Below, piece after piece: positions 598 to 24,966 of a stretch of DNA of 51,093 bases (its first letter is position 1; each line of letters begins with the position of its first letter). The translations under genes were made by a program, and so were the position numbers. The DNA comes from Elusimicrobiota bacterium (GTDB lineage: Bacteria; Elusimicrobiota; Elusimicrobia; Elusimicrobiales; UBA9959): NCBI GenBank assembly GCA_030651035.1, contig JAUSCK010000042.1:1-51093 (forward strand), written 5' to 3'. Under the pieces are notes generated by a model. It was not told the origin of the DNA. It searched no databases and was given only the letters and a program-made list of their open reading frames with translations.

Positions 598-2946
598 ATG
601 CTTAAAAACAAATACGGTCATTTTTCCGACGGCGGAGCTTCCTACACCGTCACCGACTGGCGCACCCCCAGGCCCTGGATAAACGTTATCTCCAACGGCC
701 AGTGGGGCGTGACCGTTTCACAGGCCGGGGGGGGCTACTCCTGGCTCGAGCATTCCATGCTCAACCGCATCACCCGCTGGCAGCAGGACACCGTGGGCGA
801 CCATTGCGGCAAATTCCTGCTGCTGCGCGATAACGATACCGGGCGCTCCTGGTCGATAACGCCGCAGCCGCTCAAGCCGGCCTTCCAGAAATACAGCTGC
901 GTCCACGGGATGGGCTATACGGTTTTCAACACCCAGGCCTTCGGAATAGAAGCGGAATGGACCATCTTCGTGCCCCAGGACATGAAGTGCGAAGTCTGGA
1001 CGCTGAAGCTGAAAAACGTTTCCGGGAAAAAGCGCAATATCTCGCTCGTCAGCTACCTCGAGCTGCTGCTGGGAGTATTTCCCGACTGGCACCGGGAATT
1101 CCACAATCTTTTCGTAAAGACCAGCTTCGATAAAAAGAACAACGCCATACTGGCCGACTCCAACCTGTGGACAGCGCCGCTGCCGGGCGACGCGGGCTGG
1201 AACAAGGGCTGGCCGTTCACGGCCGTTTTCGCCTCCAGCGCCAAACCGTCCTCTTTCACCTGCGACAAGGAAGAGATCTTCGGCGCGTATAACTCCTGGC
1301 ACGACGCCCGCTTCCTGAAAGAGGGCGGCTCTTTGTCCGGCAGGGTGGGCATGGGCTTCGAGCCTGTGGTCTCAATGAAGTTCGACCTAGAGCTTGCCGC
1401 CGGAGCCTCGAAAGATATCAATTTCATGCTGGGCGCGCTGAAGCACGACACTTTCAAAAAAGACTATCCCGCGTACATGAAAGCCTTGAAGAAACCCCAG
1501 GCGCTGCTGGCTGGAACCAGGGAACATTGGCTTGAGCTGTGCAACAGGTTCAAGGTGAAGACGCCCGAGCCCGCCGTGGACGCCCTGATAAATTACTGGC
1601 TGAAATACCAGACCATCTCCTGCCGCCTGCTGGGCCGGACGGCCTACTACCAGTGCGGCGGCGCGTTCGGCTTCAGGGACCAGCTGCAGGACAGCCAGCT
1701 CTACCTGGTCCTGGACCCGGCCAAGACCAAAGCGCAGATAAAAGAACATTCCACCCACCAGAAGAAAGACGGGACCGTGCAGCACTGGTGGCATCCGATC
1801 TCGGAGGAAGGGCGTTTCACCGACATCTCCGACGATCTGCTGTGGCTGCCGTTCGTAGTGGCCGGCTATCTGCAGGAGACGGATGATTACGGCATCCTCA
1901 AAGAAAAAGCCGCCTACTACGACGGAGGCTCCGGCACCATTTACGAGCATTGCCTGGCTTCTATAGAGCGCGTCCTTAAGCGCCTGAGCCCGCGCGGGCT
2001 TACGCTTATGGGCGAAGGGGACTGGAACGACGGGCTGAACGGCGTCGGCGTAAATTGGAAGGGCGAGTCCGTCTGGCTGGCGCAGTTCTTCGTGCACGTG
2101 CTTAATTCCTTCACTGAAATTTGCGCCAAGGCTGATAAAGGCAACAAGCTGGCCCCGCACTTTGGCCCTTTCGGAAAAAGTGCGGGGCGGGCCGCGCGCT
2201 ACAGGCTCGAGTCGGAGAAGCTGAAGAAAGCCCTGATGAAACACGCTTTTAAGGGCGACCGGTTCATGCTCGCCACAAAAGACAGCGGAGAGGTGCTGGG
2301 CGCAGAATCCTGCAGACAGGGTAAGATCCACCTCAATCCCCAGACCTGGGCGGTGATAAGCGGCGTGGTGGAAGGCGCGCAGGCCAAAAAACTGCTTGCG
2401 GTCACCGAAAAGCGGCTTTACCGCGATTACGGCGTGCTGCTGTTCACTCCGGCCTATTCGGTGGTGGACAAGAATATCGGCTACCTCACCCGCTACGCCC
2501 CCGGCATACGTGAGAACGGCGGCGTCTACACCCACGCGGCCACCTGGGCCATCTGGGCGCAGGCGCTGGCCGGCAATACCGCTAAAGTTTACGATACCGT
2601 GGCCCGGCTGTGCCCGCCGCTGCTGTCAATGAAAGACGCCGACAGATACAAAGGCGAGCCTTATGTGACCCCCGGCAATATAGAAGGCCCCGAATCCATC
2701 CACGAAGGCAAGGGCGCCTGGACCTGGTACAGCGGCTCTTCCGCCTGGCTGTTCAAGTGCATAACGGAGCGGTTGCTGGGCGTGCGCGTCGAGAACGGCA
2801 AGATCGTAGTGGACCCCAAACTGCCCGCGCACTGGGACGGCTTCACTATGGAGCGGCTGGTGCGCGGCAAGCGGACACGCATTACCGTAGGCAAACCCGC
2901 AGGCATAGTGACCGACAACTATAAGATCAAAACGGAGCTCCTGTGA
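598..2946 (+). CDS. GH94 glycoside phosphorylase (cellobiose/chitobiose phosphorylase-like)
   Basis: TPRPWINVISN, GFRDQLQD, catalytic GDWNDG, ENGGVYTH, W.SGSSAW motifs; 782 aa. Confidence 0.9.
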   Translation: MLKNKYGHFSDGGASYTVTDWRTPRPWINVISNGQWGVTVSQAGGGYSWLEHSMLNRITRWQQDTVGDHCGKFLLLRDNDTGRSWSITPQPLKPAFQKYSCVHGMGYTVFNTQAFGIEAEWTIFVPQDMKCEVWTLKLKNVSGKKRNISLVSYLELLLGVFPDWHREFHNLFVKTSFDKKNNAILADSNLWTAPLPGDAGWNKGWPFTAVFASSAKPSSFTCDKEEIFGAYNSWHDARFLKEGGSLSGRVGMGFEPVVSMKFDLELAAGASKDINFMLGALKHDTFKKDYPAYMKALKKPQALLAGTREHWLELCNRFKVKTPEPAVDALINYWLKYQTISCRLLGRTAYYQCGGAFGFRDQLQDSQLYLVLDPAKTKAQIKEHSTHQKKDGTVQHWWHPISEEGRFTDISDDLLWLPFVVAGYLQETDDYGILKEKAAYYDGGSGTIYEHCLASIERVLKRLSPRGLTLMGEGDWNDGLNGVGVNWKGESVWLAQFFVHVLNSFTEICAKADKGNKLAPHFGPFGKSAGRAARYRLESEKLKKALMKHAFKGDRFMLATKDSGEVLGAESCRQGKIHLNPQTWAVISGVVEGAQAKKLLAVTEKRLYRDYGVLLFTPAYSVVDKNIGYLTRYAPGIRENGGVYTHAATWAIWAQALAGNTAKVYDTVARLCPPLLSMKDADRYKGEPYVTPGNIEGPESIHEGKGAWTWYSGSSAWLFKCITERLLGVRVENGKIVVDPKLPAHWDGFTMERLVRGKRTRITVGKPAGIVTDNYKIKTELL
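2152..2188. repeat. intragenic palindromic element, copy A (inside GH94)
   Basis: GCCCCGCACTTT-GGCCCTTTCGGAA-AAAGTGCGGGGC; translated as APHFGPFGKSAG. Confidence 0.85.
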
Positions 2947-5315
2947 AACCTTTAACCATCCCCGAAATGCGCGGCGGGAATTTCATCCTGAACGGCAAGC
3001 CGGTTTTTATTTACTCCGGAGAATTCCATTACTTCAGGTGCGACCCCAAAGACTGGCCCGAGAGGCTGGCAAGGGCCAAAGAAGCCGGCCTCAACGCCGT
3101 GGCCTCCTACATACCCTGGCGCTGGCACGAGGTGAAAGAAGGGGCTTTCGATTTCACCGGAAAAACGCACCCGCGCAGGAACCTCGTTGAATTTCTGCGC
3201 CTGGTCTCCGAAAGCGGCCTCTATTTTATTCCGCGCATCGGCCCGGTCTCGAACGGGGAAATGATGAACGAAGGGCTGCCCGACTGGCTGTCGGAGAAAT
3301 ACCCCGGGGTATTCCTGGCCGCCAACGAGGGAAAAACCATACACCACCAGTCGCCGCCCGCCTATAACAGCCCGCAATTCCTTGCCAAGGTGCAGGCCTG
3401 GTACGAAAAGCTGGTCCCGCTGCTTACCGCGTCGCAATACCCGGCCGGGAACATACCTTTTTTCCAGCTCTGCAACGAAATCGGCATGATAAACTGGCTG
3501 GGCAAGATCGGCGATTACGCGCCCTATTCCGACAGGATGTACCGGGACTTCCTTAAGAAAAGATACGGCAGCATTGGCAAGCTCAATTCGGCATATAGCA
3601 CTGCCCATAAGGGCTTCCCCGAGATCAGGCAGCCCGCCAACAAGCTTGAGGAAGGGAACCTGCGCTGCCTGCTGGACTGGGGGGACTACTACAAGGAATA
3701 TTACGCCGTTTATTTCGCGAAACTCCATTCCATGGCGAGGAAGCTCGGCGTCCGGACACCCGTGCTGGCCAATATCCCGCAGTTCTACGACTATGACCTG
3801 CGCGGCCGCGGCATCTACTCCCCGACCACAACGATAAAGTTCGGCAAGTTCGCCGAGAAAGTCCCAGGCGTCATTTTCGGGGGCGCGTACCAGATGCGCC
3901 GCCTGGATTACGAGAACTTCCACGACATAGCCATCACCACCGCCGTGGTGAAGAGCATAACCCCGGAAGGTTCGCCCGTCGTCTGCGCCGAGCTTCAGAC
4001 CGGCGTCTTAAGCGACAAGCCCAGGCTTTACCCTGCCGACGTCGAGCTTAACCTGAAAACCACCTTCATGAGCGGCGTTAACGGTCTGAACTGCTACATG
4101 TTCGCCGGCGGAACAAATGAAGGAGGCGTGGGCCAGTTCGGCCTTTACCACGAGTGGCAGGCCCCGGTGGCCTCCGACGGCCGGCTGCGCAGCCATTTCA
4201 GGAGCCTGGCTAAGTTCGGAGAATTTATTAACGGGATAGGCGCCTCCGCCGCGGCCATGCCGCCGGCCGCCGACCTGGACCTCGGGTTCTACGGCGAGTA
4301 CTACAATACCGAATACCTCGACGGCCCGATGGCCGACAAGATGTTCGCGGTCAGGAACGAATTCTTCTTCGACGGGCTCGCCCGCCAGGCATACCTGGCA
4401 GGATACCAGACCGGCCTGGTAGACATAAAGAATAGCCCGTCAATAAAAGCCCCGGCGCTGGCGGTTTTTTCTACCATGTTCATGGACGCGGCATCCCAGC
4501 ACAAGCTCTTTGACTATGTGAACAAGGGGGGGAAACTGCTTTTTTGCGGTGAGAGCCTCCTTATGAACGAAGGCGGGAAGCCCTGCTCTCCTTTCCTTGA
4601 CTCACTCGGGCTTAAGGCTGAAAAGATCGGGAAGGTCCGCACCGTGGAATTCCTCGGAAGGGAAACCTACCTGCACAACCAGGATATCAACACTTTCAGC
4701 GGCCTGCTGCACGACGACAAGGTTATAGCCGTTTATAAAGGCAAGCCGTGCGGGATAGTGCGCCTGGTGGGCAAAGGCGCCTTGTGCCTTTTAGGCTTCC
4801 ACTTCTCCGACAAGTTCGATTATTTCAAGCCGGCCTTCGACGATGTCTGCCGCGAGCTGGGAGTGAAAAAGAGCGTCAGCACCGGCGGCTACGATCTTAT
4901 AACCATGCTGCGCCGGGACAAGGATTCCGGGTTCCTGCTCATAGCGAATTACCACGACGACGTGACCCCGGGACGGATCGCCGTCGAGCTTGACGGTGAC
5001 AAGCTAGAATTCCCGCTGCTGATGAGGAACAGGTCCGCCGTTATCGTCCCGCTGCATTACAAGCTGAAAACCGGAAGCGTGATCCGCTACGCCACCTGCG
5101 AGATCACCTCGGTTAACTACCTGAGCCAGGGGATGGAGCTCAGCTACAATACGGCATCGGTGGAAAGGGATGTGATAGAGCTCACGGCAATGAGCGTCTC
5201 CTCCGTCACCGCTGAAGGAGCCAAGGTCGGCGTACACGGTCATGACGCCGGCGTAACGCTCAAAATACGGCACAAGCCCGGCAGCACCGGCGGGAAACTG
5301 ACGATCTACTATTGA
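2943..5315 (+). CDS. GH35-family glycosidase with GH42-like C-terminal domains (beta-galactosidase / GlmA-like architecture)
   Basis: SGEFHYFR, GLNAVASYIPW, RIGP...E...GLPDWL, acid/base QLCNE, ELQTG; GTG start overlaps upstream stop. Confidence 0.8.
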   Translation: MKPLTIPEMRGGNFILNGKPVFIYSGEFHYFRCDPKDWPERLARAKEAGLNAVASYIPWRWHEVKEGAFDFTGKTHPRRNLVEFLRLVSESGLYFIPRIGPVSNGEMMNEGLPDWLSEKYPGVFLAANEGKTIHHQSPPAYNSPQFLAKVQAWYEKLVPLLTASQYPAGNIPFFQLCNEIGMINWLGKIGDYAPYSDRMYRDFLKKRYGSIGKLNSAYSTAHKGFPEIRQPANKLEEGNLRCLLDWGDYYKEYYAVYFAKLHSMARKLGVRTPVLANIPQFYDYDLRGRGIYSPTTTIKFGKFAEKVPGVIFGGAYQMRRLDYENFHDIAITTAVVKSITPEGSPVVCAELQTGVLSDKPRLYPADVELNLKTTFMSGVNGLNCYMFAGGTNEGGVGQFGLYHEWQAPVASDGRLRSHFRSLAKFGEFINGIGASAAAMPPAADLDLGFYGEYYNTEYLDGPMADKMFAVRNEFFFDGLARQAYLAGYQTGLVDIKNSPSIKAPALAVFSTMFMDAASQHKLFDYVNKGGKLLFCGESLLMNEGGKPCSPFLDSLGLKAEKIGKVRTVEFLGRETYLHNQDINTFSGLLHDDKVIAVYKGKPCGIVRLVGKGALCLLGFHFSDKFDYFKPAFDDVCRELGVKKSVSTGGYDLITMLRRDKDSGFLLIANYHDDVTPGRIAVELDGDKLEFPLLMRNRSAVIVPLHYKLKTGSVIRYATCEITSVNYLSQGMELSYNTASVERDVIELTAMSVSSVTAEGAKVGVHGHDAGVTLKIRHKPGSTGGKLTIYY

Positions 5316-5326
5316 GAGGATACTTT

Positions 5327-6391
5327 ATGGCTGAAGTTGAATTGACTAACATTTCCAAGACTTTCGACGGGGCTCCGCGCCCGGTCCTGCATGACATTTC
5401 GTTTACGGTCAAAGACACCGAGTTCGTTTCGCTGCTGGGCCCTTCCGGCTGCGGGAAAACCACCCTGCTGAGGATAATAGCCGGGCTGGAGGAGCAGACC
5501 GCCGGCAATGTTTCCATAGGCGCCCTCGACATGACCCGGGTAGCCCCGCGCGACAGGGACATGGCTTTCGTGTTCCAGAACTACGCGCTCTACCCGCATT
5601 TTTCGGTGGAAGATAATATCTCGCTCGGGCTCAGGCTGAGGAAAATACCCGGGCCCGAGATCGAGACCAGGGTGAAAGCCACTACCGAAATGCTCGGCCT
5701 CGAGGCGCTGCTGGAGCGCAAGCCGCGCGCGCTGAGCGGCGGACAGCGGCAGAGGGTCGCGCTGGCCCGCGCGCTGGTGCGCAACCCTAAAGTCTTCCTG
5801 CTCGACGAGCCGCTCAGCAACCTGGACGCCAAGCTGCGGGACAAGACCCGGGGGGAGCTCAGGCTGCTTTTCAAGAAAGTGAAGGGCACGGTCATCTATG
5901 TCACCCACGACCAGATAGAGGCTATGACCATGTCCGACAAAATAGTGATACTGCAGGAGGGGAAGATACAGCAGGTGGGCACCCCGAACGAGATCTACGA
6001 GAAGCCGGCCAATATCTTCGTCGCCACCTTTATCGGGACGCCGCAGATGAATATCCTGACAAAAAAGGAAATGCAGGCGATGGGCTGCGCCCTGACCGGC
6101 GCGGAGGCCGGCCTGGAAGACCTTACCTGCGGGATACGCCCCGAAGACCTGGAAGCGTCCGCAGAGCCGCGCCAGGGCTGGGTAGAGGCTGCGGTGGACC
6201 TGTGCGAGCCTACCGGTGCGCTTACTACGCTTACCCTTTCTGCCGCCGGAACCACGCTACGCTGCTCTACCACGCTGAAATGGCCGCTGACCCAGACCCG
6301 CGCCTGGTTCACTTTTAAACGCGAGCATATGCATTTCTTCAGCTCCGCCGAAGGCACCCGGATAAATTATTCACATGGATATACAGGATAG
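5327..6391 (+). CDS. sugar ABC transporter ATP-binding protein (MalK/UgpC family)
   Basis: GPSGCGKTT, VFQNYALYPH, LSGGQRQR, LLDEPLSNLDA, YVTHDQ; GAGAGG RBS before ATG 5327. Confidence 0.95.
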   Translation: MAEVELTNISKTFDGAPRPVLHDISFTVKDTEFVSLLGPSGCGKTTLLRIIAGLEEQTAGNVSIGALDMTRVAPRDRDMAFVFQNYALYPHFSVEDNISLGLRLRKIPGPEIETRVKATTEMLGLEALLERKPRALSGGQRQRVALARALVRNPKVFLLDEPLSNLDAKLRDKTRGELRLLFKKVKGTVIYVTHDQIEAMTMSDKIVILQEGKIQQVGTPNEIYEKPANIFVATFIGTPQMNILTKKEMQAMGCALTGAEAGLEDLTCGIRPEDLEASAEPRQGWVEAAVDLCEPTGALTTLTLSAAGTTLRCSTTLKWPLTQTRAWFTFKREHMHFFSSAEGTRINYSHGYTG

Positions 6392-6440
6392 ACAGGATAA
6401 AGAAAAGTAAAATCCTGTATATCCTGTCCATCCATGTTAA
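6370..6440. repeat. REP-like palindrome built of ACAGGAT/ATCCTGT units with ~9-nt period
   Basis: ACATGGAT.ATACAGGATAGACAGGAT ... ATCCTGTATATCCTGTCCATCCATGT; overlaps the ABC ATPase stop codon. Confidence 0.75.
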
Positions 6441-6525
6441 AACTCTTAGCTCCTGGTTTATAAATTAATTATAAAATTTAAGCGCGGGATGCATAGATGG
6501 CTATTTTTCAGACTATGGACAACAA

Positions 6526-7560: not shown

Positions 7561-7654
7561 ACCCGGTCTCACGCCGGCCCTGAACACAAATTATTGCCGC
7601 AAATATATATTTGTGCGGCTCAACAGCCTTAACCGTCCGGCTTTCACCGTATAA

Positions 7655-8815: not shown

Positions 8816-8827
8816 GACCGCGGACCG

Positions 8828-9454: not shown

Positions 9455-9467
9455 AAATTTTCCCGGG

Positions 9468-13040: not shown

Positions 13041-13076
13041 ATGCAGAAAAATATAGTTATAGAACGGGGAAAGATC

Positions 13077-13661
13077 ATGGCAATTAAATCCGAAAAACAG
13101 GCGCGCGCAGAAAAGAAGCCGCCGGTAAAAATCAAAGTTAACGGCCGATGGCATGAGTTCGAGCCGGGCCGCGACATAGAGCCGGAGATGACCCTTTCCT
13201 ACCTGCTGCGTGAAAAGCTCGGCTATACCGGCCTTAAAGTCGCCTGCGACGAGGGCGCCTGCGGCGCCTGCACGGTGCTTATGGACGGCAAGGCTGTCCT
13301 GTCCTGCATGAAGCTGGCCGTAGAGGCGCACGGGCACGAGGTCCTCACCATCGAAGGCCTCCCCGAAGACGACCCGGTTATCCAGGCTTTCGCGAAGCAG
13401 TGCGAGCCCGGCTACGGCACGGCCCTGCAGTGCGGGTTCTGCACGCCCGGTTTTGTGATGGCGGCAAAAGGCCTGCTCAATGAAAACCCCAGGCCGACGA
13501 CGGGAGAGATCAAAGAGGGCCTTTCGGGGAACATCTGCCGCTGCGGCTGCTATTCCGGCATCGCCCGGGCGGTGCTGCACGCCTCGCACTTTTCCCCGTG
13601 CCCGGGTCAAAGTGCGAGGCAAGCCTCGCGGGAATCAGCGCAGAAGGGAGGCAAACAATGA
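13077..13661 (+). CDS. (2Fe-2S)-binding small subunit of xanthine dehydrogenase-family enzyme (CoxS-like)
   Basis: KVACDEGACGACTV, SC, QCGFCTPG, GNICRCG. Confidence 0.93.
   Translation: MAIKSEKQARAEKKPPVKIKVNGRWHEFEPGRDIEPEMTLSYLLREKLGYTGLKVACDEGACGACTVLMDGKAVLSCMKLAVEAHGHEVLTIEGLPEDDPVIQAFAKQCEPGYGTALQCGFCTPGFVMAAKGLLNENPRPTTGEIKEGLSGNICRCGCYSGIARAVLHASHFSPCPGQSARQASRESAQKGGKQ
13581..13620. repeat. intragenic palindromic element, copy B (reverse orientation, C-terminus of 2Fe-2S subunit)
   Basis: GCCTCGCACTTTTCCCCGTGCCCGGGTCAAAGTGCGAGGC; compensatory T-A pair in the stem. Confidence 0.8.
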
Positions 13662-16024: not shown

Positions 16025-16027
16025 ACT

Positions 16028-18391
16028 ATGGCGATGAAAAAATTCAATCATCTTCAGGCTAAGTCGCTTAAAGAAGCGGCCGCACTTATCTCCGGGGCAG
16101 GCCCCGCACTTTGGCCCGGGCACGGGAAAAAGTGCGGGGCGAGCCGGACCCTCGCGATCGCCGGCGGCACCGACGCGCTGGGCGCCCTCAAGGACAAGAT
16201 CCACAGGGAAAGCCCGGCGCTGGTAGTGGACCTTAAGACGATCCCCGGCCTGAACTATATCTCCGAGGACAAAGCCGGGCTGCGCATCGGCGCGCTGACC
16301 CCGCTGAACGAAATAGCCGCGCACAAGACGGTCAGCGGGAAATACAAGCTCCTCGCCGAGGCGGCGCGCAGCGTCGCTTCCCCGCAGCTCAGGAACATGG
16401 CCACCATAGCCGGGAATCTCTGCCAGGAACCCAGGTGCTGGTACTACCGCACCCCCGACGACCAGTTCCATTGCCTGAGAAAAGGCGGCACGCATTGCGG
16501 CGCGCTCCTGGGCGAGAACCGCTACCACTCTATATTCGGAGGCGCGCGGGTGGCCGCGCCTGCCTGCACGGACGCCTGCCCCGGCAACGTAGAGATAGCG
16601 GATTATCTTTCCCTGGTAAGGGAAGGGAATTTAAGCGCCGCCGCGGAGATTATCCTCAGGAACAACCCGCTCCCGGCCCTGACCGGCCGCGTCTGCCCGC
16701 ATCTCTGTGAAGGGAAATGCAACCGCGCCGCGTTCGACGAAGCGGTCTCTATCCGCGCCATGGAGCGGTCCCTCGGGAATAATATCCTTGAACACGCCGC
16801 TGAATTTATGAAGCCGCCCGCTAAACGGACGAAGAAAAAGATCGCTGTGGTCGGCTCCGGCCCGGCCGGGCTGGCGGCGGCTTATTACCTGAGACTGGCC
16901 GGGCACCAGGTGACGGTGTTCGACAGGCTGCCCCGCGCGGGCGGGATGCTGGCCTACGCCATCCCGGCGTACCGGCTCCCCAGGAACCTGGTCCGCGCCC
17001 AGGTAGCGGCGCTGGAGGCGATGGGAATAACCTTTAAACTCAATACAGAAATAGGCCCCAAGGGCATCTCCCTGCGCGCCCTGCGCAGGGATTTTGACGG
17101 CGTGTTCCTGGCGACCGGGGCCTGGGCGCAGAAAAACCTGCGGCTCGGGAGATCGGAACTGCTCACCTCCGGCATGGCCTTCCTGACGGGCAGCAAGCCC
17201 GTCGTGGGCAGGAATGTTTTAGTGATCGGCGGCGGCAATGTGGCGGTGGACGTGGCGGTGAGCGCCCGGCGCGCGGGCGCCCGGAGCGTGACGATGGCCT
17301 GCCTGGAGGCCCGGGACGGGATGCCGGCCTTCCCGGCGGAGATCGCTGAGGCCGTGAAAGAAGGCGTGCGCATTCTTCCCGGGTGGGGGCCGCAGCGGAT
17401 CCTTGAAGCGGGGGGGAAAGTGAAGGGGATGGAGTTTGTCCGGTGTTCTTCGGTTTTTGACGGACAGGGTAATTTTAATCCCAACTTCGACGCTGGTCAG
17501 AATAAGGTGGTCAAAGCCGACCAGGTCATCCTGGCAATCGGCCAGGCCGCCGAGCTCGGCTACGCCGCGGGCGTCAAGACGCTGCGGGGTCTGCTCATCG
17601 CGGATGAAGCGACGCAGGCCACCAGCCTGGCCGGCGTGTTCGCGGGCGGGGACGCGGTAAGCGGCCCGGCATCGGTTATTCACGCCATCGCCGCCGGGCG
17701 CAGGGCCGCGCGGGCGATGGAGATTTATCTGAAAGGCGGGAAAAAGCGGCCTGAAAAGAGCGCGCATGCCGCTGTAAGCCCCCTGCTGGCGCTGAACGCC
17801 GATTGCGGCGCGCACAGCTCGCGGACCGGGCACTCCGAAAGCAAGGGGTTAACCCCTGACGGGCTGAGCGCGGAAGCCAGGCGCTGCATCGACTGCAGCT
17901 GTGTCGCGGTAAACGCTTCGGACCTGGCGCCGGCGCTGGCGGCCCTCGGCGCGAGGATAAAAACGACCAGACGGACCATTGCGGCCGAAGATTTCTTTAC
18001 CGCCGGCGTGCTGAAGTCCACCGTGCTGGACCATGACGAGCTGGTGGAGGAGATACTGGTGCCGGCGCCGCGGCCGGGCAGCGTCCAAGGCTACCACAAG
18101 TTCAGGATACGGAACTCCATAGACTTCCCTATTGCCGGCCTGGCCGGCGTTTTCAGCACCGCGGGGGGGAAGATCAGGGACGCCAGGCTGGTGCTGAGCG
18201 CCGTGGCCCCCGTCCCGCTCAGGCTGAAAGCCGTTGAGGAGTTCCTGGAAGGGAAACCGGCCGGGGAGAAAACGGCTGCCGCTGCCGGGGAACTTGCCGC
18301 AAAAGAAGTCCGGCCGCTGGCTAAGAACCGCTTTAAGGTCCAGATCGTAAAAGCCCTGCTCCAAAAAGCGATCATGTCCTCGGCCGGATAA
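16028..18391 (+). CDS. FAD-binding medium subunit (PaoB/HcrB-like) with inserted GltD-like Fe-S/NAD(P)-FAD module
   Basis: AGGTD, ASPQLRNMATIAGNLCQ.PRC.YYR; then C...CP, GRVCPHLCE..C, GSGPAG, GGGNVA, AGGDA; then C.AVNASDLAPAL and CO_deh_flav_C-like tail. Confidence 0.88.
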   Translation: MAMKKFNHLQAKSLKEAAALISGAGPALWPGHGKKCGASRTLAIAGGTDALGALKDKIHRESPALVVDLKTIPGLNYISEDKAGLRIGALTPLNEIAAHKTVSGKYKLLAEAARSVASPQLRNMATIAGNLCQEPRCWYYRTPDDQFHCLRKGGTHCGALLGENRYHSIFGGARVAAPACTDACPGNVEIADYLSLVREGNLSAAAEIILRNNPLPALTGRVCPHLCEGKCNRAAFDEAVSIRAMERSLGNNILEHAAEFMKPPAKRTKKKIAVVGSGPAGLAAAYYLRLAGHQVTVFDRLPRAGGMLAYAIPAYRLPRNLVRAQVAALEAMGITFKLNTEIGPKGISLRALRRDFDGVFLATGAWAQKNLRLGRSELLTSGMAFLTGSKPVVGRNVLVIGGGNVAVDVAVSARRAGARSVTMACLEARDGMPAFPAEIAEAVKEGVRILPGWGPQRILEAGGKVKGMEFVRCSSVFDGQGNFNPNFDAGQNKVVKADQVILAIGQAAELGYAAGVKTLRGLLIADEATQATSLAGVFAGGDAVSGPASVIHAIAAGRRAARAMEIYLKGGKKRPEKSAHAAVSPLLALNADCGAHSSRTGHSESKGLTPDGLSAEARRCIDCSCVAVNASDLAPALAALGARIKTTRRTIAAEDFFTAGVLKSTVLDHDELVEEILVPAPRPGSVQGYHKFRIRNSIDFPIAGLAGVFSTAGGKIRDARLVLSAVAPVPLRLKAVEEFLEGKPAGEKTAAAAGELAAKEVRPLAKNRFKVQIVKALLQKAIMSSAG
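16101..16140. repeat. intragenic palindromic element, copy C (N-terminal region of FAD subunit)
   Basis: GCCCCGCACTTTGGCCCGGGCACGGGAAAAAGTGCGGGGC; translated as GPALWPGHGKKCGA. Confidence 0.85.
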
Positions 18392-18485
18392 AGTAAAACA
18401 GGCGGGAAACTACTTCCCGCAGCCCCCGTAAAACCGGACAATAACCTATAACTCATTTATATGTCATGGCCTTGTCTTATGCTTT

Positions 18486-18525
18486 TTGTATGTAGCTATA
18501 CAATGTTTTGTATATATTGATACAA
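18486..18525. promoter_or_regulatory. tandem palindromic operator boxes TTGTAT-N6-ATACAA (x2)
   Basis: TTGTATGTAGCTATACAA at 18486-18503 and TTGTATATATTGATACAA at 18508-18525, just upstream of the next gene. Confidence 0.65.
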
Positions 18526-18550
18526 TTTGATAAACTTACAAAAGAATCAT

Positions 18551-19207
18551 ATGACATATAACGAACTTGCCGCTAAAACTGCGGAGCTCGGCTTCCAACC
18601 TGCTGAGCCCGGCCCCCGGAACGATGCCAGCAAAACCCTGGCGGAGGTCGTTCAAAGCCATGATCAGCGCTTTTGGGAGGCTTTCCCCGCTATGCTGGCA
18701 AACGCGGCGGAGGCGGGGGAATTCGACCTTGACGCCGCAAACGCCTGTTTAGAGGAAAATGAGAGAAAGTTCCTCAAACTGCTGATCATTGTCTCCCTGG
18801 GGCTGTATGAAAGCCTGGGGATGAGGTTTGCCTGGGCAGAAAAGCTTTCCGGGGACCTTCCGGCCAGGTTGATAGAGAATTTCAGGGAGAAATTCAGATC
18901 GGACGCGGAGCTGGAGCTGGGGCAAGTGCGCATGCTGCCGGGAAAAGTCAGCGGGAATTTCCTCAAGTGCTTCAGGAAAAGAAGCGGCTCGGCCAGGAGC
19001 GCGGCCGAAGCCAGCGGGAAGCTGGACCTGGAGCTCGCCGTCTCCCGGATATTCACACCCAGGCAAAAAGAGCTTTTCCTCAAAAAGCTGCGCCGCAAGA
19101 AAATGACCAAGACGGAGAAAGAGTACTTCTCCCGCGTGATAAAGAAAAAAGCGCAGGCCCTCGCGAACGAAGACCTGCACCGCCTGGCCCGGAAAGTCCT
19201 GGAGTAA
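18551..19207 (+). CDS. hypothetical protein with basic, possibly DNA-binding C-terminus
   Basis: long ORF with host-like codon usage; C-terminus FTPRQKELFLKKLRRKKMTKTEKEYFSRVIKKK. Confidence 0.7.
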   Translation: MTYNELAAKTAELGFQPAEPGPRNDASKTLAEVVQSHDQRFWEAFPAMLANAAEAGEFDLDAANACLEENERKFLKLLIIVSLGLYESLGMRFAWAEKLSGDLPARLIENFREKFRSDAELELGQVRMLPGKVSGNFLKCFRKRSGSARSAAEASGKLDLELAVSRIFTPRQKELFLKKLRRKKMTKTEKEYFSRVIKKKAQALANEDLHRLARKVLE

Positions 19208-19283
19208 ATATTTCCCTATATATATAAGGAAGTCCCTGGCCCTGCGGAAACCGCGCAGAGGATTCCGGCACATCCGGCCATAT

Positions 19284-19314
19284 AAAAGCCCCGGGGAGGT
19301 CATCCCCGGGGCTT
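19284..19314 (-). terminator. intrinsic terminator between convergent genes
   Basis: AAGCCCCGGGGA-GGTCA-TCCCCGGGGCTT stem, T run on minus strand. Confidence 0.75.
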
Positions 19315-19328
19315 ATAACGCCTAAGGC

Positions 19329-19847
19329 TTAGTTTAGATACTTATTTACATCTTCGGGCTTGTAGTTCGCCACAGTTTTCCCGTCCCGGGTGAAGAGAGT
19401 AATGCTCTTGTCCGCGTTGGTCCTGGAGTTAAGCCGGGTGCCGTTGGAGTCGGTGGCATAGAGGTCGCCGGCCTTATCCTTGGCCATTACTACCCAGCCT
19501 TTGGGCCTGTTATTTTCGAAGATGTCGATCCGCAGGCGGTTCTCGGCCGGCATCCAGTTCAGCACGGCGGACTGGTTTCCATCGTTCAGGCTCTTCGTGG
19601 TCTTTGCGGTAACCGGATTCTTCTCGCCCCAGAACTCCATCGCGTTCAGGACTATGGCGTCGGCAATCCCGACGACTTCATATACCGGGACTATGCACAT
19701 CGCCAGGAACAGGGCTTCCTGCCCCCACTTATCTTTCGTCGTGTCGCCGTTCCACTTCCAGACTTTTCGGCTCAGCGAAAAGCTCCCGTAGCAGCCGGCA
19801 GTCAGCAGCACGGCAGCCAGCAATACCAAACCAGTGGTTTTTTTCAT
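19329..19847 (-). CDS. DUF3332-family lipoprotein
   Basis: lipobox LTAGC; CYGSF.L..K...WN and IPVY...AD..VLN..EFW pattern. Confidence 0.75.
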   Translation of the reverse strand: MKKTTGLVLLAAVLLTAGCYGSFSLSRKVWKWNGDTTKDKWGQEALFLAMCIVPVYEVVGIADAIVLNAMEFWGEKNPVTAKTTKSLNDGNQSAVLNWMPAENRLRIDIFENNRPKGWVVMAKDKAGDLYATDSNGTRLNSRTNADKSITLFTRDGKTVANYKPEDVNKYLN

Positions 19848-20032
19848 TTTGGGCCCCCTTATGGTATCCCGCGATCACTCCCCAATTCTGCAAATTATAG
19901 TTCATTAATGTCAACCTACAGGATACTTCGCGCCGCCTGGTGAACAAGGGCGGAGACGTCCGCCTGTGGATGCCGGGCCGTGGTCGTTGGAAACCGCGAT
20001 GCGGATTATATGTGAAAACCTGAAAAGGAAAG

Positions 20033-20104
20033 TGTCCCCACCAGGAATCGAACCTGGATTGCCTGCTTAGAAGGCAGGAGCTCTATCCTTTGAGCTATGG
20101 GGAC
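20033..20104 (-). tRNA. tRNA-Arg(TCT)
   Basis: reverse complement GTCCCCATAGCTCAAAGGATAGAGC...CCTGC-CTTCTAA-GCAGG...GGTTCGATTCC...TGGGGACA; CCA not encoded. Confidence 0.95.
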
Positions 20105-20337
20105 AACCGCTATATTTTACAACAATAATCTGAGTTTTGGTGCGGTGCCAAAGTTGGACGATGCTGACCTCCCGCCTTAAACGCAGCATCGATCGCCTAT
20201 AAATCCCACCCTGTGCCGCTCAGGAACAGGAGCACATTTTTATGACCTCAGGCTGTAGGAGCGGCATGACGCCGCCGGAGGGGGAACAAAATACACTTAT
20301 TATTCAAGGCTTATTTGCGAGGGGGGGAATCCGGGCC

Positions 20338-20366
20338 TTGACAACTATACTTTGCTATGCTATACT
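20338..20366 (+). promoter_or_regulatory. near-consensus sigma70 promoter
   Basis: TTGACA, 17-bp spacer ending in TGc, then TATACT (extended -10). Confidence 0.8.
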
Positions 20367-20405
20367 ATATACAGAAGCGAACAGGTCATCTAAACGGAGG
20401 AGATT

Positions 20406-20552
20406 ATGAATACCCAAAAGTATATGCTCCAGAAAGACTTCAAGGTGTGGATGTGCGCTACACTGGGCCTGATCAAAGACGGCAAAATGGGCGCCAGCAT
20501 TGCCCGTGCCGACCGCATAAAGCTTGCTCTAACCTACAGGAAAGGAAGGTAA
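20406..20552 (+). CDS. 48-aa small protein (not in ORF track)
   Basis: GGAGGAG RBS; MNTQKYMLQKDFKVWMCATLGLIKDGKMGASIARADRIKLALTYRKGR; downstream of strong promoter. Confidence 0.55.
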   Translation: MNTQKYMLQKDFKVWMCATLGLIKDGKMGASIARADRIKLALTYRKGR

Positions 20553-20554
20553 AC

Positions 20555-20752
20555 ATGAAACCACGCTACCAGATAGTCATCTCTCTTTCGGAAGAGGACA
20601 GCGTGAAACTGCAGCAGTTAAGAGAAGACGGCTACCAGATAGTGGACATCTTCCGCCTCGGCCTTACCGAGGCGGAAGTGGCGGTTAAGAAGTCCGGAAA
20701 GCGGAAGGAAAAGCCCAGCCAGGGCAAAACCAGCCAGGATAAACTCTTCTAA
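20555..20752 (+). CDS. 65-aa small protein, possible ribbon-helix-helix DNA-binding protein
   Basis: AGGAAGG RBS; strand-helix-G-helix pattern YQIVISL-SEEDSVKLQQLRE-DG-YQIVDIFRLGL. Confidence 0.55.
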   Translation: MKPRYQIVISLSEEDSVKLQQLREDGYQIVDIFRLGLTEAEVAVKKSGKRKEKPSQGKTSQDKLF

Positions 20753-20864
20753 CCCTTCTGTCGTCATCCCTCATCCCTAATCCCTAGCCATAGGCCTTTA
20801 GGCCTATTCCCGTTTGGGAAGAACAGCCCTTACAAAAACTGTACGGAATCCGTATAATATAAAC

Positions 20865-21290
20865 ATGAAAAACACTAAAGCGGTATTCCTTGTAGTTCTC
20901 GGTTCTTTAATTCTTGTCACCGGCTTCGCCTTCGCCGGAAATCATTCTCTTGACCAGGCCGGCAATCCCTCTCTTTGGAAAGGCGACGGGCGCTCGAAGA
21001 TTGTGCTCCCTAAGCTGAATATCACCGCTAATAAAGAGGTTGCCGCGACCACACCCGTAGTAGCACCCCCCACTCCGCCTACGCCCCCGGTTCCCGTGGT
21101 CGTACCCCCGGCGCCCAAACCCCCGACTTTCGGTGAAAAAGTGACGAAGCTGATAAGCGACAACAAGAGCCAGATAGTAACCTCGGCGTTCGTTGGATTC
21201 CTTGGTTTCCTGATATTAGGGACCGGCGGAGCCGCGCTGGTGGTAGGTCTGATAGCCTTGGTCTTCTTCACGCTGAACAAAAAGTTCTAG
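20865..21290 (+). CDS. hypothetical exported/membrane protein with Pro-rich linker
   Basis: signal peptide ending AFA, PPTPPTPPVPVVVPPAPKPP, two C-terminal hydrophobic helices. Confidence 0.7.
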   Translation: MKNTKAVFLVVLGSLILVTGFAFAGNHSLDQAGNPSLWKGDGRSKIVLPKLNITANKEVAATTPVVAPPTPPTPPVPVVVPPAPKPPTFGEKVTKLISDNKSQIVTSAFVGFLGFLILGTGGAALVVGLIALVFFTLNKKF

Positions 21291-21301
21291 TACTCTTCCA
21301 T

Positions 21302-21357
21302 CCGGCTGAAAAAAATCCACCGCGCAGTCTGCGCGGTGGATTTTTAATTTCAGCCGG
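21302..21357. terminator. bidirectional intrinsic terminator
   Basis: AAAAATCCACCGCGCAG-T-CTGCGCGGTGGATTTTT with outer CCGGCTGAAA/TTTCAGCCGG arms, between convergent genes. Confidence 0.85.
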
Positions 21358-21364
21358 GTCGCGG

Positions 21365-22144
21365 TTATTTTTTATCTTTTTCCTTATTCAAGCGCACGGC
21401 CGCGGCTATGCCCAGCAGCACCAGGTCGGGGATAACGCGGTCGAAAAGCCCCGCGTCCTCGAACAGCTTGGAGAAGCCGCCGGTGCCTATCACCAGCGCG
21501 TCCTCGGAAAAATAATCGCTCTTTATCCTGGCGGAGATCCCTCTTATGGCCAGCAGGCTGGAGTAATACAGGCCGGACTGGATGGAATCCACGGTAGTCT
21601 TGCCCACCAGCTCGGCGGGCCTGGCTATCTCCACCCGCGGCAGTTTGGCCGTCCTTGAGGCAAGCGCCTCCATGGAGATGCGCAGCCCCGGCATTATCAC
21701 GCCGCCCAGGTATTCCTTCTTCTTCGAAACGGCGCAGAAGGTGGTGGCCGTGCCCAGGTCCACTATCACCAGGTCTTTCTCCGGGAACATCGCTGAGGCG
21801 GCTATGGCGTTGGCTATCCTGTCGGCGCCTACCTCGGCGGGGTTCTTGTACTTTATGTTCAGGCCGGTTTTTATGCCGCCCTGCAGCAGGAAAGGCTCCA
21901 GGTTGAAATATTTCAGCGAGGTCTGGTGCAGCGCGTAGATAAGGTCCGGCACTACCGAGCAGATGGCCAGCTCCTTTATCTCCTTCGGGTCTATGCCGTT
22001 CTCGCGGAGCACGTTCCTGAAAAAGGTCCCGAACTCGTCGGGAGTTGCGCTGCAGGAAGTGCCCCGGAACTTGGCCACCAGCTTGTCGTCCCTGAAAACG
22101 CCGCCGTATATCTGCGTATTGCCTACGTCGAGAGCTAAGAGCAT
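21365..22144 (-). CDS. coaX: type III pantothenate kinase
   Basis: LDVGNT, VGADR, VDLGTATT, YLGGVIMPG, TGG. Confidence 0.95.
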   Translation of the reverse strand: MLLALDVGNTQIYGGVFRDDKLVAKFRGTSCSATPDEFGTFFRNVLRENGIDPKEIKELAICSVVPDLIYALHQTSLKYFNLEPFLLQGGIKTGLNIKYKNPAEVGADRIANAIAASAMFPEKDLVIVDLGTATTFCAVSKKKEYLGGVIMPGLRISMEALASRTAKLPRVEIARPAELVGKTTVDSIQSGLYYSSLLAIRGISARIKSDYFSEDALVIGTGGFSKLFEDAGLFDRVIPDLVLLGIAAAVRLNKEKDKK

Positions 22145-22163
22145 ATTGTCTCCGATTTGGTCT

Positions 22164-22856
22164 CTATTGCTGAATACACCCCGCACTTTTTCCGGAAGCC
22201 GGCCAAATTGCGGGGTAAAGCCGGTCAGCCAGTTCCTCCGGCCCGCCGCAGTCGGCCAGTTTGCACCCGTTCCTGTAGATGTGAAAAAAATGTTTCTTCT
22301 TCATCTCGGCGAGGTCGTTGTGCACCACAAGATCCGCCGAGGACAGGGCGCGGACTTTTTCAAGAACGCGCTCAGCCGCTGCGCCAGAGGTCAGCTTGAA
22401 GCCTATCAGCAGCGGCGGGGCCTTTTTCCCGGCCGCCGCGTATTTTTTTATCCGGTCTATGATCTTAAAGTTCCTTTTCAGGACCAGCTTGATAACCGGC
22501 GCTTCGGAATCCAGCTTGCCGGCGCGGCCCGGCTTAATTCTTTTGCCGCCGGCCTCTATTAGGGCGGGGGAATAATCGCTGACCGCCGCCAAGTGGACTA
22601 CCGCGTCGAAGGCCTGCGTCTTTAAAAGCCGTTGAAGTTCCAGGTCCAGGTCCTTAAAACCCGTGAATTCTCTCACGCTGATGTTTTTGCCGGCGGGCCG
22701 CTCGGCGCCCTGCGCGCAAAGGCACATGGTCTTACAGCCGCGCGCGGCGAAGCGCTCGGCTATTATGCGGCCGGTCCTGCCGGTGCTCATATTGGTTATG
22801 AAACGGGCGGCGTCGATGTATTCCCGCGTCCCGCCGAAAGTCAGAAGCACTTTCAT
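22164..22856 (-). CDS. coaB: phosphopantothenate--cysteine ligase (stand-alone CoaB)
   Basis: GGTREYID..RFITN.STG..G, HLAAVSDY, IGFKL, VVHND. Confidence 0.88.
   Translation of the reverse strand: MKVLLTFGGTREYIDAARFITNMSTGRTGRIIAERFAARGCKTMCLCAQGAERPAGKNISVREFTGFKDLDLELQRLLKTQAFDAVVHLAAVSDYSPALIEAGGKRIKPGRAGKLDSEAPVIKLVLKRNFKIIDRIKKYAAAGKKAPPLLIGFKLTSGAAAERVLEKVRALSSADLVVHNDLAEMKKKHFFHIYRNGCKLADCGGPEELADRLYPAIWPASGKSAGCIQQ
22178..22216. repeat. intragenic palindromic element, copy D (C-terminus of CoaB)
   Basis: ACCCCGCACTTTTTCCGGAAGCCGGCCAAATTGCGGGGT; translated on minus strand as PAIWPASGKSAG. Confidence 0.8.
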
Positions 22857-23395
22857 AAATGCTTTATTATTTCCTTATATATAGCGTCGGGCTCCAGCAG
22901 CCTGCCGGCGCCTTTGTCGCCGCAGGCCTGGTAGCCGGTGCCGGTGCCCAGCATCTTTACGCCCCAGCCGGCAAGTATGCCCGCCGAGCGCCTCGTGGCC
23001 GGGTGGGCCCACATGTTCTGGTTCATGGCCGGGGCTACCAGGTAGGGCTTCGAGAAGTCGAAGGCCAGGAAGACGGTGGAGATATAATCGTCGCCTATCC
23101 CGGCCGCCAGCTTGTTGATAATATTGGCGGTGGCCGGGCAGATGATCGCCAGGTCCAGCCATTTGGTCAGGGCTATATGCTCCAGCGCCGACCTGTCCTC
23201 GAAAGTGTCGACGTAGACCGCGTTATGGGTGAGCCCTTCAAGGGTGGACTTGCCGATGAATTTCAGCGCGTTCGCCGAGCAGACGGTCTTGACGTCGAAT
23301 CCCTCCTGCACCAATTTTGAGACGACATTGCAGGCCTTGTAGCAGGCTATGGAGCCTGTCAGCTGGAAGAGTATCTTGCCTTTAGATTTGGACAT
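22853..23395 (-). CDS. coaC: phosphopantothenoylcysteine decarboxylase (stand-alone CoaC)
   Basis: TGSIACYK, HI.L, PATAN...K.A.GI.D, APAMN..M, ACG..G.GRL. Confidence 0.92.
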   Translation of the reverse strand: MSKSKGKILFQLTGSIACYKACNVVSKLVQEGFDVKTVCSANALKFIGKSTLEGLTHNAVYVDTFEDRSALEHIALTKWLDLAIICPATANIINKLAAGIGDDYISTVFLAFDFSKPYLVAPAMNQNMWAHPATRRSAGILAGWGVKMLGTGTGYQACGDKGAGRLLEPDAIYKEIIKHL

Positions 23396-24143
23396 TATCG
23401 ATAAGCCTCACTTTACCCAGTTTAGCCGCTGCGAACCTGCGGCCCCACCGCTCTTCAACATATTCCGGCTCGAAGCCCAGCGCGGCCAGCCGCTTTTTAA
23501 TGCCGGCGGGGCGGGCGGGCGACCTGAGCGCCTTATACAGTGCGGGGGCAAGCTTCCTCTCCCCCGGCTCCAGCAGCAGATTGCGCGAGCTCATGGCCAG
23601 CCCGTCCGGCTCCCTCATTATCGGGCAGGGGACTATGCTTGTGCCTGTGAAGAAAGCCTCCGCCATCCCTTTAATTAAATGGTACTGCTGGTAATCTTTT
23701 TCACCGAAGTAGGCCCTGTCGGCGCGGACCAGGTTGAGCAGCTTCAGCACCACGGTCAGCACGCCCTCGAAGTGGCCGGGCCTGTGCGCGCCGCAGAGGA
23801 CTTTGCTGTCGTTGGTCTCGCTAAGCCTGTACCTGTAGCCGTCGGGGTACATATCTCCGGCAGAAGGCAGCAGCAGGAAATCGGTTCTTTCCGCCTCCAG
23901 CTTTTTGATATCTTCAGCCAGCGTGCGGGGATAGCGCTCAAGGTCCCGCGGGTCGTTGAACTGGGCCGGGTTCACAAAAATGCTGGCCACAGCCAGGTCG
24001 TTCTCCCGCTTGGCGCGGCGCAGCAGGGACAGATGGCCCGCATGCAGGGCTCCCATGGTGGGAACGAAGCCGACGGTCTTGCCGGCAAAGAGCAGACTGG
24101 TACGCAGCTTCAGCCACTTCGCTGTTCCTTTAACTGTCACCAT
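23382..24143 (-). CDS. panC: pantoate--beta-alanine ligase
   Basis: GFVPTMGALHAGH, SIFVNPAQF, RPGHF.GV, FGEKDYQQ, REPDGLAMSSRN, RLIDN. Confidence 0.96.
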   Translation of the reverse strand: MVTVKGTAKWLKLRTSLLFAGKTVGFVPTMGALHAGHLSLLRRAKRENDLAVASIFVNPAQFNDPRDLERYPRTLAEDIKKLEAERTDFLLLPSAGDMYPDGYRYRLSETNDSKVLCGAHRPGHFEGVLTVVLKLLNLVRADRAYFGEKDYQQYHLIKGMAEAFFTGTSIVPCPIMREPDGLAMSSRNLLLEPGERKLAPALYKALRSPARPAGIKKRLAALGFEPEYVEERWGRRFAAAKLGKVRLIDNVQI

Positions 24144-24966
24144 GTTGATTTCCTTCACCCCGCACTTTGGCCGGTTGTTCGGAAAAAGTGCGGGGTTTCA
24201 TCTCCGGGAATACGGAATTTTTAATTTCGCTGTCAAACTCGTTAAGCGCGCGCACTACCAGTTGGCGGCCGTCCAGGTATTTTTTAACGAAGGAGGGGGG
24301 CTCGCCGTAAAGCCCGAGCATGTCCTGCATAACCAGCACCTGCCCGTCGGTAAATTGTCCCGCGCCTATCCCTATCACCGGTATTCTGAGGGAAGCGGTG
24401 ATGCGCTCCGCAAGCGCCGCAGGCACGCATTCCAGCACCAGGGCGAAGCAGCCAAGCTTCTCCAGCTCCAGCGCCTGGGCGGCCAGCCTTTCAGCCGAGG
24501 CCGGGTCCTTGCCCTGTGCCTTGTAGCCGCCGAATTTATTAATCGACTGCGGGGTCAGACCTAGATGCCCCATCACCGGCATATCGGATTTTATTATATG
24601 CGCGATTATTTTCCCATGTCCTTCAACGCCCTCTACTTTCACGGCTTGCGCCCCTGCCCTGGCCAGCTTCTCCACGGCCCGCATGGCCGGGGCCAGCCCC
24701 TTGCGCATGGACAGGAAAGGCATATCGGCGATCACCAGTTTTTCTTTAACGGCCCTGGAGACGGCCGCGGTGTGCAGCGCCATCATAGCTACGGTGGCCG
24801 CTATGGTGGAGCCGTGGCCGTGCATTACCATGGCCAGGCTGTCGCCGACCAGAACGCAGTCTATGGCCGACTCCGCGGCGAGGACGGCCATGGTGTAGTC
24901 GTAGGCCGTTATCACTGAGATCTTGCGCCCCGGTTTTTTGTATTTATAAAAGTCAGTTATTTTCAT
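24130..24966 (-). CDS. panB: 3-methyl-2-oxobutanoate hydroxymethyltransferase
   Basis: TAYD, LVGDSL, ADMPF, KVEG, GHLGLTPQ, IGIGAG..DGQVLV. Confidence 0.96.
   Translation of the reverse strand: MKITDFYKYKKPGRKISVITAYDYTMAVLAAESAIDCVLVGDSLAMVMHGHGSTIAATVAMMALHTAAVSRAVKEKLVIADMPFLSMRKGLAPAMRAVEKLARAGAQAVKVEGVEGHGKIIAHIIKSDMPVMGHLGLTPQSINKFGGYKAQGKDPASAERLAAQALELEKLGCFALVLECVPAALAERITASLRIPVIGIGAGQFTDGQVLVMQDMLGLYGEPPSFVKKYLDGRQLVVRALNEFDSEIKNSVFPEMKPRTFSEQPAKVRGEGNQHGDS
24157..24196. repeat. intragenic palindromic element, copy E (C-terminal extension of PanB)
   Basis: ACCCCGCACTTTGGCCGGTTGTTCGGAAAAAGTGCGGGGT; translated on minus strand as PRTFSEQPAKVRG. Confidence 0.85.

Follow-up and report, generated by a model that had tools for sequence, protein, structure and literature searches.

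Five copies of a palindrome lie within genes of one contig

We analyzed a 51,093-nt contig of a draft Elusimicrobiota genome (GTDB order Elusimicrobiales, UBA9959; assembly GCA_030651035.1, contig JAUSCK010000042.1, positions 1 to 51,093 of the forward strand), referred to here as the window, in which a short palindrome occurs five times (copies A–E), each time inside a protein-coding gene. The genome (denoted G000) comprises 4.47 Mb in 320 contigs with 57.7% G+C, and the window is its contig C177. Copy A (2153..2187, plus strand) lies in the gene of a 782-amino-acid (aa) GH94 phosphorylase-type protein (598..2946, plus). Copy B (13582..13619, minus) lies in the 2Fe-2S subunit of a molybdenum hydroxylase (13041..13661, plus), whose stop codon overlaps the next start (ATGA), and copy C (16102..16139, plus) in a 787-aa FAD subunit fused with Fer4_20 and Pyr_redox_2 domains (16028..18391, plus). 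Copy D (22179..22215, minus) is in a coaB-type DFP-domain gene (22164..22856, minus), next to which coaX starts near 22144-22146, and copy E (24158..24195, plus) is in panB (24130..25011, minus), which overlaps the panC start at 24143. A preliminary description of the window, made from the sequence alone, had named these five hosts, and Pfam confirmed the names. It had also reported that all five palindromes lie in open reading frames (ORFs) and encode the peptides APHFGPFGKSAG, SHFSPCPGQSAR, PALWPGHGKKCG, PAIWPASGKSAG and PRTFSEQPAKVRG, which direct reading of the cores and their translations bore out. Its coordinates gave the right sites, with ranges that took in one flanking base on each side.

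A search of the window with GCACTTT-N8-30-AAAGTGC gave four matches, against none in 100 shuffles, and the remaining copy (22179-22215) differs from the pattern at one arm base (AAATTGC). A search with the full 11-nt arm (CCCCGCACTTT, at most one mismatch) gave 11 matches compared with 1.6 expected, of which 10 form the five pairs and one, at 23537-23547, stands alone. The element has the layout CCCCGCACTTT-GG-(short stem, variable loop)-AA-AAAGTGCGGGG, with a core of 34–41 nt made up of an 11-nt arm, an inner stem (mostly CCG...CGG), a 3–9-nt loop, and the complementary arm. The two-base mismatch, with GG on one side and AA on the other, gives the element a polarity. The core is 35 nt long in copy A (preceded by CTGG at 2149-2152), 37 nt in copy D, and 38 nt in copies B, C and E; copy B carries the compensatory T-A pair that had been described (CCTCG...CGAGG). 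As RNA, the five copies had predicted folding energies between −25 and −35 kcal/mol (z = −4.3 to −7.1 relative to shuffles). The earlier proposal that the palindrome adds peptide segments and mRNA hairpins to genes is consistent with these values, the hairpins being predicted and the peptides deduced by translation.

The copies are insertions relative to orthologous genes

We compared the host genes with their same-genus orthologues (79%–90% identity), which lack the element; the only locus resembling an exception is at copy E. At all five window sites the insertion was 4 nt longer than the core (39–42 nt), and the peptides were absent from the orthologues, as expected if they are indels. Copy A is a 39-nt in-frame insertion that adds 13 aa (LAPHFGPFGKSAG) to the GH94 catalytic domain; it was missing in five out of five orthologues at ∼90% aa identity, and 53 out of 55 more distant homologues had no extra residues at the site. 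Copy B, a 42-nt in-frame insertion 10 codons ahead of the stop of the 2Fe-2S subunit and 5′ of the next gene's ribosome-binding site, encodes aa 181-194, just beyond the end of the Fer2_2 domain at aa 178 (Pfam), and was missing from all six orthologous loci spanning the site. Copy C is an in-frame insertion of 39–42 nt within FAD_binding_5, immediately ahead of the AGGTD motif, and splits the Pfam match of this domain into two stretches; it was missing in three out of three orthologues located by script (seven loci tried). Copy D (41 nt) lies 11 codons ahead of the coaB stop of the orthologues and shifts the frame, such that the last 11 codons are replaced by a new 16-residue tail; the DFP domain ends at aa 186 (Pfam), and none of the 10 orthologous loci spanning the site has the insert. 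Copy E (42 nt) sits in the panB tail directly 5′ of the panC ribosome-binding site and start, beyond a PanB domain that ends at aa 270 (Pfam). It was missing from seven of the eight orthologous loci spanning the site, and the eighth (L043, G005:C144) has a degenerate palindrome at the same place (window 24150-24200), which points to a hot spot or to an old insertion shared by the two genomes.

Copies A and C are therefore located within Pfam domain envelopes, and copies B, D and E between a domain end and the stop codon, with B and E preserving the frame and occupying the few codons available there. This agrees with the earlier assignment of two copies to domain interiors. The other three, previously described as C-terminal extensions, turned out to be insertions into the last 10–20 codons and not read-through extensions.

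Filled and empty sites were also compared elsewhere in the genome. A 914-aa protein on contig C168 has a two-copy array and a single copy, which are missing from its orthologues, and another protein (C170) has a three-copy array in a region outside the matched blocks in all 30 genus genomes. In a tRNA methyltransferase-like gene, the empty orthologous site has one CTCG, and G000 has CTCG-core-CTCG. The empty orthologous site in IspG already reads CAAG-CCCCGC, and at the filled site the insertion lies between the copies of a 10-nt repeat, which takes in the duplicated CAAG and six bases from the start of the element's own arm, so the boundary is ambiguous. For one more host gene (L079), no match was found among the five genomes compared. 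An origin in mis-assembly or faulty gene calling was ruled out by an orthologous copy in another genome, by the same pattern in other metagenome-assembled genomes (MAGs), and by Pfam domains that continue across the inserts.

Two further observations concern the molybdenum hydroxylase genes. In the 787-aa fusion that hosts copy C, the Fer4_20 and pyridine-nucleotide-disulphide-oxidoreductase domains sit between FAD_binding_5 and CO_deh_flav_C, an arrangement conserved in same-genus genomes at 79%–86% identity. In addition, a congener (G007:C33, locus L033) has a different hairpin-like insertion of ∼60 nt, with arms CCCCACCACC.../...GGTGGTGGGG, aligned near window position ∼13660 and directly after the start codon of the orthologous molybdopterin-subunit gene; genome G002 (L034) has extra bases there too.

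A dispersed family with most copies inside genes

The pattern with 7-nt arms had 45 exact matches in the genome. A relaxed search (11-nt arms, up to two mismatches each and three in total) returned 74, nine of which are a variant within a longer repeat of ∼250 nt and were set aside, leaving 65 dispersed copies. Genes were predicted by a dicodon model that had the long ORFs of this genome as its training set; it yielded 3640 genes covering 86% of the DNA. Thirty-five dispersed copies lie deep inside genes, seven in the first 30 codons, five in the last 20 codons, five overlap a gene end, and 13 are intergenic. A total of 47/65 (∼72%) lie wholly within called genes; the element lands in genes about as readily as elsewhere, and the concern that its copies might be mostly intergenic does not hold.

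Pfam families were found in 17 out of 20 tested host proteins. Hosts include anhydro-MurNAc kinase (AnmK), IspG, a PurQ-like amidotransferase (GATase_5), methylmalonyl-CoA mutase, DNA polymerase I (PolA), a Mur ligase, an aminotransferase, ComEC and others, with two copies each in adenylosuccinate lyase (PurB), DnaX, and a radical-SAM/SPASM protein. The element falls within the domain envelope in AnmK, IspG, GATase_5 and the aminotransferase, and between two Lyase_1 stretches in adenylosuccinate lyase. Some copies form tandem and inverted arrays with periods of 39 or 42 nt.

The ∼250-nt repeat (loci L057 and L058) contains long-range self-complementary segments, carries the palindrome variant near one end, and is often close to contig ends. 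It was found at C11:3289, C116:11145, C145:5452, C169:45, C249:36092, C262:207, C32:5886, C52:14817 and C88:23676. A search of Rfam returned no family for the palindromes or for this repeat, two tRNAs being the only matches.

Most gene-internal copies have lengths that keep the reading frame

With 4 nt added to the core at each insertion, the frame is kept by core lengths of 35, 38, 41 or 44 nt and by no others. The core length was 2 mod 3 in 33 out of 35 gene-internal copies compared with five out of 18 non-coding copies (Fisher p = 8e-7). The same held for 15 copies in other Elusimicrobia MAGs, where a frame-keeping length was seen in 8/8 copies in long coding-like ORFs and in 2/7 elsewhere. 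For 30/35 internal copies, the 180 nt to either side scored best as coding sequence in the host frame. Since length would be irrelevant if the hairpins were removed from the RNA, we infer that the inserts are translated, adding ∼13–15 residues. Frame usage among the 35 internal copies was uneven (19, 15 and 1; binomial p = 1.7e-5), with the frame that encodes Trp and Cys being the rare one; this bias may stem from peptide selection or from the target's codon phase.

An AlphaFold model of the GH94 host had a mean predicted local distance difference test score (pLDDT) of 90 and a predicted template modeling score of 0.92. The sole segment with pLDDT below 50 spans residues 516-527, which correspond to the insert and form a turn between helices 492-514 and 528-550. 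Mapping onto a structure model, as had been suggested, thus placed copy A in a predicted disordered loop at what appears to be a tolerant position. Nothing corresponding to the inserts is seen in solved structures of GH94 proteins or FAD subunits, and the solved FAD-subunit homologues align only from residue 36-43 onward.

Flanking repeats, target sites and variants

The 58 non-redundant copies share the context GGGG-CNNG-core-CNNG-CCC, and the enrichment of G at −6 and −5 and of C at +5 persisted among the 47 isolated copies. Target sites resembling two abutted element ends (GG-CNNG-C) are favored, which explains the tandem and inverted arrays. A perfect 4-nt direct repeat flanks 12 out of 58 copies in G000 compared with 1.7 expected from permuted partners, and nine out of 15 copies in other MAGs (counted by eye), one of these repeats being 5 nt long. 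The flanking repeats are copy-specific and comprise many different sequences.

Length variants with the same arms were also found. Genome G048 has two copies of 83 nt and one of 126 nt, with perfect 4-nt repeats and unrelated interiors, and G000 has variants of 65 and 117 nt that lack a perfect repeat. The 126-nt variant (L116, G048:C309) contains a piece of another short repeat family, which is present in at least nine places in G000 (including C204:1886-1975, C210:4856, C224:10350, C90:7466, C39:2239, C259:1767, C188:9077 and C122:19124). Small repeats are, judging from these sequences, nested in one another in these genomes.

Perfect 11-nt arms were present in 36/74 copies. The center of the element still pairs, with a mean of 2.9 bp compared with 0.5 bp in shuffles. 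The 26 distinct imperfect arm pairs include four that changed on both sides and are still complementary, three that changed on both sides and are unpaired, and a total of 27 one-sided changes. The double-sided complementary changes are mild evidence that the hairpin itself is maintained.

Distribution and age of the family

The exact pattern was found 39 times in G000, twice in G007 and once in G010, and was absent from the remaining 38 of 40 relatives (22 of the same genus and 16 of the same order). A scan of 185,579 species genomes (one genome per species, from which the window genome's own records were possibly excluded) yielded 15 stretches, all in four Elusimicrobia MAGs (7, 6, 1 and 1); two of these MAGs carry ∼13 and ∼35–40 arm pairs. 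One copy in adenylosuccinate lyase is at the same site in G000 and in its congener G007, within a surrounding gene that is 78%–81% identical, and G000 has a second copy beside the shared one. By this comparison the family is older than the species, persists inside genes, and is most expanded in G000. The preliminary description had proposed a lineage-specific selfish mini-element: the reading as selfish DNA was supported, but the family is not restricted to this genome, given the occurrences in a few Elusimicrobia MAGs and the insertion shared with a congener.

Transposases of the genome

The preliminary description had suggested a look for a RAYT (REP-associated tyrosine transposase; REP, repetitive extragenic palindrome) or IS200-type transposase adjoining the copies. 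None was found next to them. The genome has nine matches above cutoff to Y1_Tnp (PF01797), located at C252:1236-1910, C257:859-1755, C170:180-1034, C251:2827-3804, C58:10116-11087, C29:3108-4091 and C41:1388-2368, and on C118 and C51. All nine of these IS200-like genes are flanked by their own, unrelated 17–30-nt inverted repeats, eight with a GGGG(A/T)C-type motif, which is the layout termed TIRtron in PMC3733652. The seven Y1 proteins obtained from gene calls are 224–327 aa long, and a scan of seven Y1 genes revealed no arm-like palindrome within 400 nt. The six DDE_Tnp_1 matches had no arms nearby, and DDE_5 and DDE_Tnp_4 had no match in the genome; the search for insertion sequence (IS) families covered these three and Y1. 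Lone arms and arm pairs 60–5000 nt apart in G000 gave only one-mismatch pairs, none of them IS-like. An arm pair spanning 957 nt in G048 was considered as a parent element and rejected, as it consists of two separate degraded copies in ordinary genes.

Within the window, the region 28398-36543 has several long ORFs (e.g., 28398-30086 and 35392-36543) that score far below their neighbors in the dicodon model, which suggests atypical codon usage and possibly acquired DNA.

Discussion

We consider it likely that the palindrome is a non-autonomous miniature mobile element, resembling both REPs and MITEs (miniature transposable elements with inverted repeats), that has been filtered to in-frame positions in loops and tails of proteins. 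The element consists of two 11–16-bp inverted arms (CCCCGCACTTT...) and a short self-complementary center with a hypervariable loop. It inserts as core plus 4 nt, many copies being flanked by a 4-nt direct repeat, apparently of the target, and it has multiplied in this lineage. It would be moved in trans by an arm-recognizing enzyme. Selection would purge genic copies that break the frame or hit a critical region. Surviving genic copies would have an inserted length that is a multiple of three, would occupy surface loops, linkers and tails, and would be translated into 13–15 extra residues, and their mRNA would carry a stable predicted hairpin (−25 to −35 kcal/mol). We saw no sign of host use of the element.

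Several observations weigh against this explanation. The 4-nt repeat is imperfect in 46 out of 58 G000 copies, mostly by one or two mismatched bases, and a consensus of its own is seen in the left 4-mer (CTTG in 15 copies, TTTA in eight); a plain staggered-cut duplication may therefore not explain everything. The center is hypervariable, with 40 distinct centers among 63 copies, and simple copy-and-paste does not explain variable loops next to conserved arms, where it should be noted that the search itself required conserved arms. Five of the 35 internal copies have no clear upstream coding signal and may lie in 5′ leaders, the gene calls rest on our own dicodon model, and the inserts are only predicted to be translated. 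The searches made yielded neither a transposase nor a full-length parent element that carries these arms; IS copies are often left unassembled in draft assemblies such as this one of 320 contigs. Finally, no empty/filled polymorphism or empty-site joint was seen among assembled contigs matched to the window, possibly from the source sample, and contigs bridging copies B, D and E did so without differences. As only assembled contigs were available, the missing joint proves nothing about polymorphism.

Some of these difficulties would be removed if the element were not a conventional cut-and-paste MITE but formed a circle or a snapped-back structure before integration, with abutted ends (...GTGCGGGG-N4-CCCCGCAC...) that would recombine with similar chromosomal sites (GG-CNNG-C) by a 4-nt crossover. 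Such a route would explain the imperfect repeats, one copy of which would follow the element-borne consensus, and the resemblance of targets to element ends (10 nt at the IspG site, for example), as well as the nesting of the element in itself to form arrays and its bias to GC-rich coding DNA. We nevertheless hold such a mechanism to be improbable. A similarly low probability attaches to the idea that the palindromes are REPs in the strict sense, that is, single-strand hairpins cut and pasted by a genome-encoded RAYT (HUH/Y1) enzyme. Transposition of the IS200/IS605 type is not known to cause target duplication and inserts beside one fixed tetra- or pentanucleotide. The REP-like size and hairpin shape, the nine Y1_Tnp matches, and inverted doublets 4 nt apart that recall REP dimers (C88, C168 and C53) fit such an origin. 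However, neither end has a GTAG or CGTC tag (the ends are CCCC/GGGG, flanked by CNNG), the Y1 genes carry inverted repeats of their own with no adjacent copy of the element's palindrome, and 4-nt direct repeats flank the copies. Most copies are also genic, whereas REPs are mostly intergenic by the main-text account of PMC3733652.

The remaining alternatives give the sequence a function. That the palindrome is a host-selected nucleic-acid signal (an mRNA stabilizer, attenuator, translational coupler or protein-binding site), and not selfish DNA, would be in keeping with the very stable predicted RNA hairpins (z = −4.3 to −7.1), with the four arm pairs that changed on both sides and kept their complementarity, and with the position of copies B, D and E at operon junctions just 5′ of the next ribosome-binding site. 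Yet the host genes are unrelated, and the element is present in both orientations and for the most part in only two of the three frames; the orthologues work without the element, which is missing in 38/40 relatives; and the copies have no T-tract for termination and 27 one-sided arm changes, all of which makes such a signal very unlikely. We find it harder still to believe that the encoded peptide is a selected protein module, with the DNA palindrome secondary. The skewed frame usage does generate recurrent peptides (...PHFGPGTGKSAG... and ...PRTLA..EKVRG...), but the two orientations and frames yield unrelated ones, conservation is seen in the DNA arms and the central part of the peptide varies, the insert is modeled as a disordered loop, and non-coding copies exist. 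Codon phase of the target or avoidance of the Trp/Cys frame could also account for the bias.

The favored explanation, a miniature mobile element, places the palindrome close to several known systems. Rickettsia palindromic elements (RPEs; Ogata et al. 2000, 2002, as summarized in PMC10969869, PMC3733652 and PMC3184786) are likewise palindromic selfish repeats that occur in frame in unrelated and apparently functional genes, add peptide to them, and have no linked transposase. The lengths given for RPEs in these summaries are ∼105–146 bp (PMC3184786) and ∼150 bp (PMC10969869), compared with 34–41 bp here; we set the two apart by length. The hosts differ as well, a free-living groundwater Elusimicrobiota with a 4.5-Mb genome here and a reduced intracellular alphaproteobacterium there. 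The greater length of RPEs, pointed out in the preliminary description, holds for these values but is not enough to define a new kind of element, as short in-gene palindromes and short RPE families are reported in PMC3733652.

In that report (Di Nocera et al. 2013), REPs are described in the main text as 20–40 bp long and mostly intergenic, with a CGTC-tagged superfamily that lacks a dedicated transposase. Some are said there to lie wholly within ORFs of known proteins, often as dimers, in a number of species and chiefly in Opitutus terrae and R. conorii. Such intragenic REPs (GTAG/CGTC superfamilies, R. conorii RPE-4/RPE-6, Opitutus terrae) are, like our copies, 20–40-bp palindromes present singly, as dimers and in groups, and sometimes contained in the ORF of a known protein, including DNA polymerase I, where the same text reads them as tolerated insertions. 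Compared with REPs as described there, our element has no GTAG/CGTC tag and no REPtron, and has 4-nt flanking repeats, length variants, and a ∼72% genic location. That a mainly genic location is unusual among REPs rests on the main-text statement of PMC3733652, not on its per-species counts.

Shared ends, variable interiors and flanking repeats are the traits that define MITEs. MITEs lack coding capacity, end in terminal inverted repeats, are flanked by direct repeats, come in length variants with the same ends, and occasionally form in-frame fusions with ORFs (PMC10969869, PMC3184786), as does our element, whose flanking repeats in G000 are mostly imperfect. Our element is far below the MITE sizes given in these sources, 70–300 bp (PMC3733652) or generally <200 bp (PMC3184786), being essentially two ends and a loop, and the searches turned up no parent IS. 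A habit shared with the small dispersed repeats of cyanobacteria, which differ in phylum and sequence, is suggested by the tandem and nested copies and the end-like targets. Those repeats, attributed to Elhai et al. 2008, are reportedly mobile palindromes of ∼20–30 bp that insert into conserved sequences and into their own copies.

The palindrome belongs to a kind of selfish DNA that has been described before, of which it represents a new family in a new phylum. Among the top-ranked records of a literature search, none dealt with such repeats in Elusimicrobia, which weakly suggests that the element is undescribed. What stands out is its minimal size, mostly genic location and clean in-frame filter. 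The colonization of genes in frame by selfish palindromes, first seen in Rickettsia, has also occurred extensively in a bacterium of another phylum that is free-living, uncultured and from groundwater, through an element about as small as mobile elements can be. Selection on insertions can be read off with unusual clarity from the length mod 3, which divides genic from non-genic copies. There are practical consequences, since lineage-specific indels in core enzymes (IspG, PolA, DnaX and PurB) can mislead alignments, phylogenies and structure predictions, and such elements break assemblies. The inserts also mark permissive loops usable for protein engineering. The preference for end-like targets, together with the hypervariable loop, may hint at how REP-like repeats without a dedicated transposase move. 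If integration did proceed by the doubtful 4-nt crossover, the element would be a systematic generator of new protein surface loops acting through an undescribed mini-recombination system.

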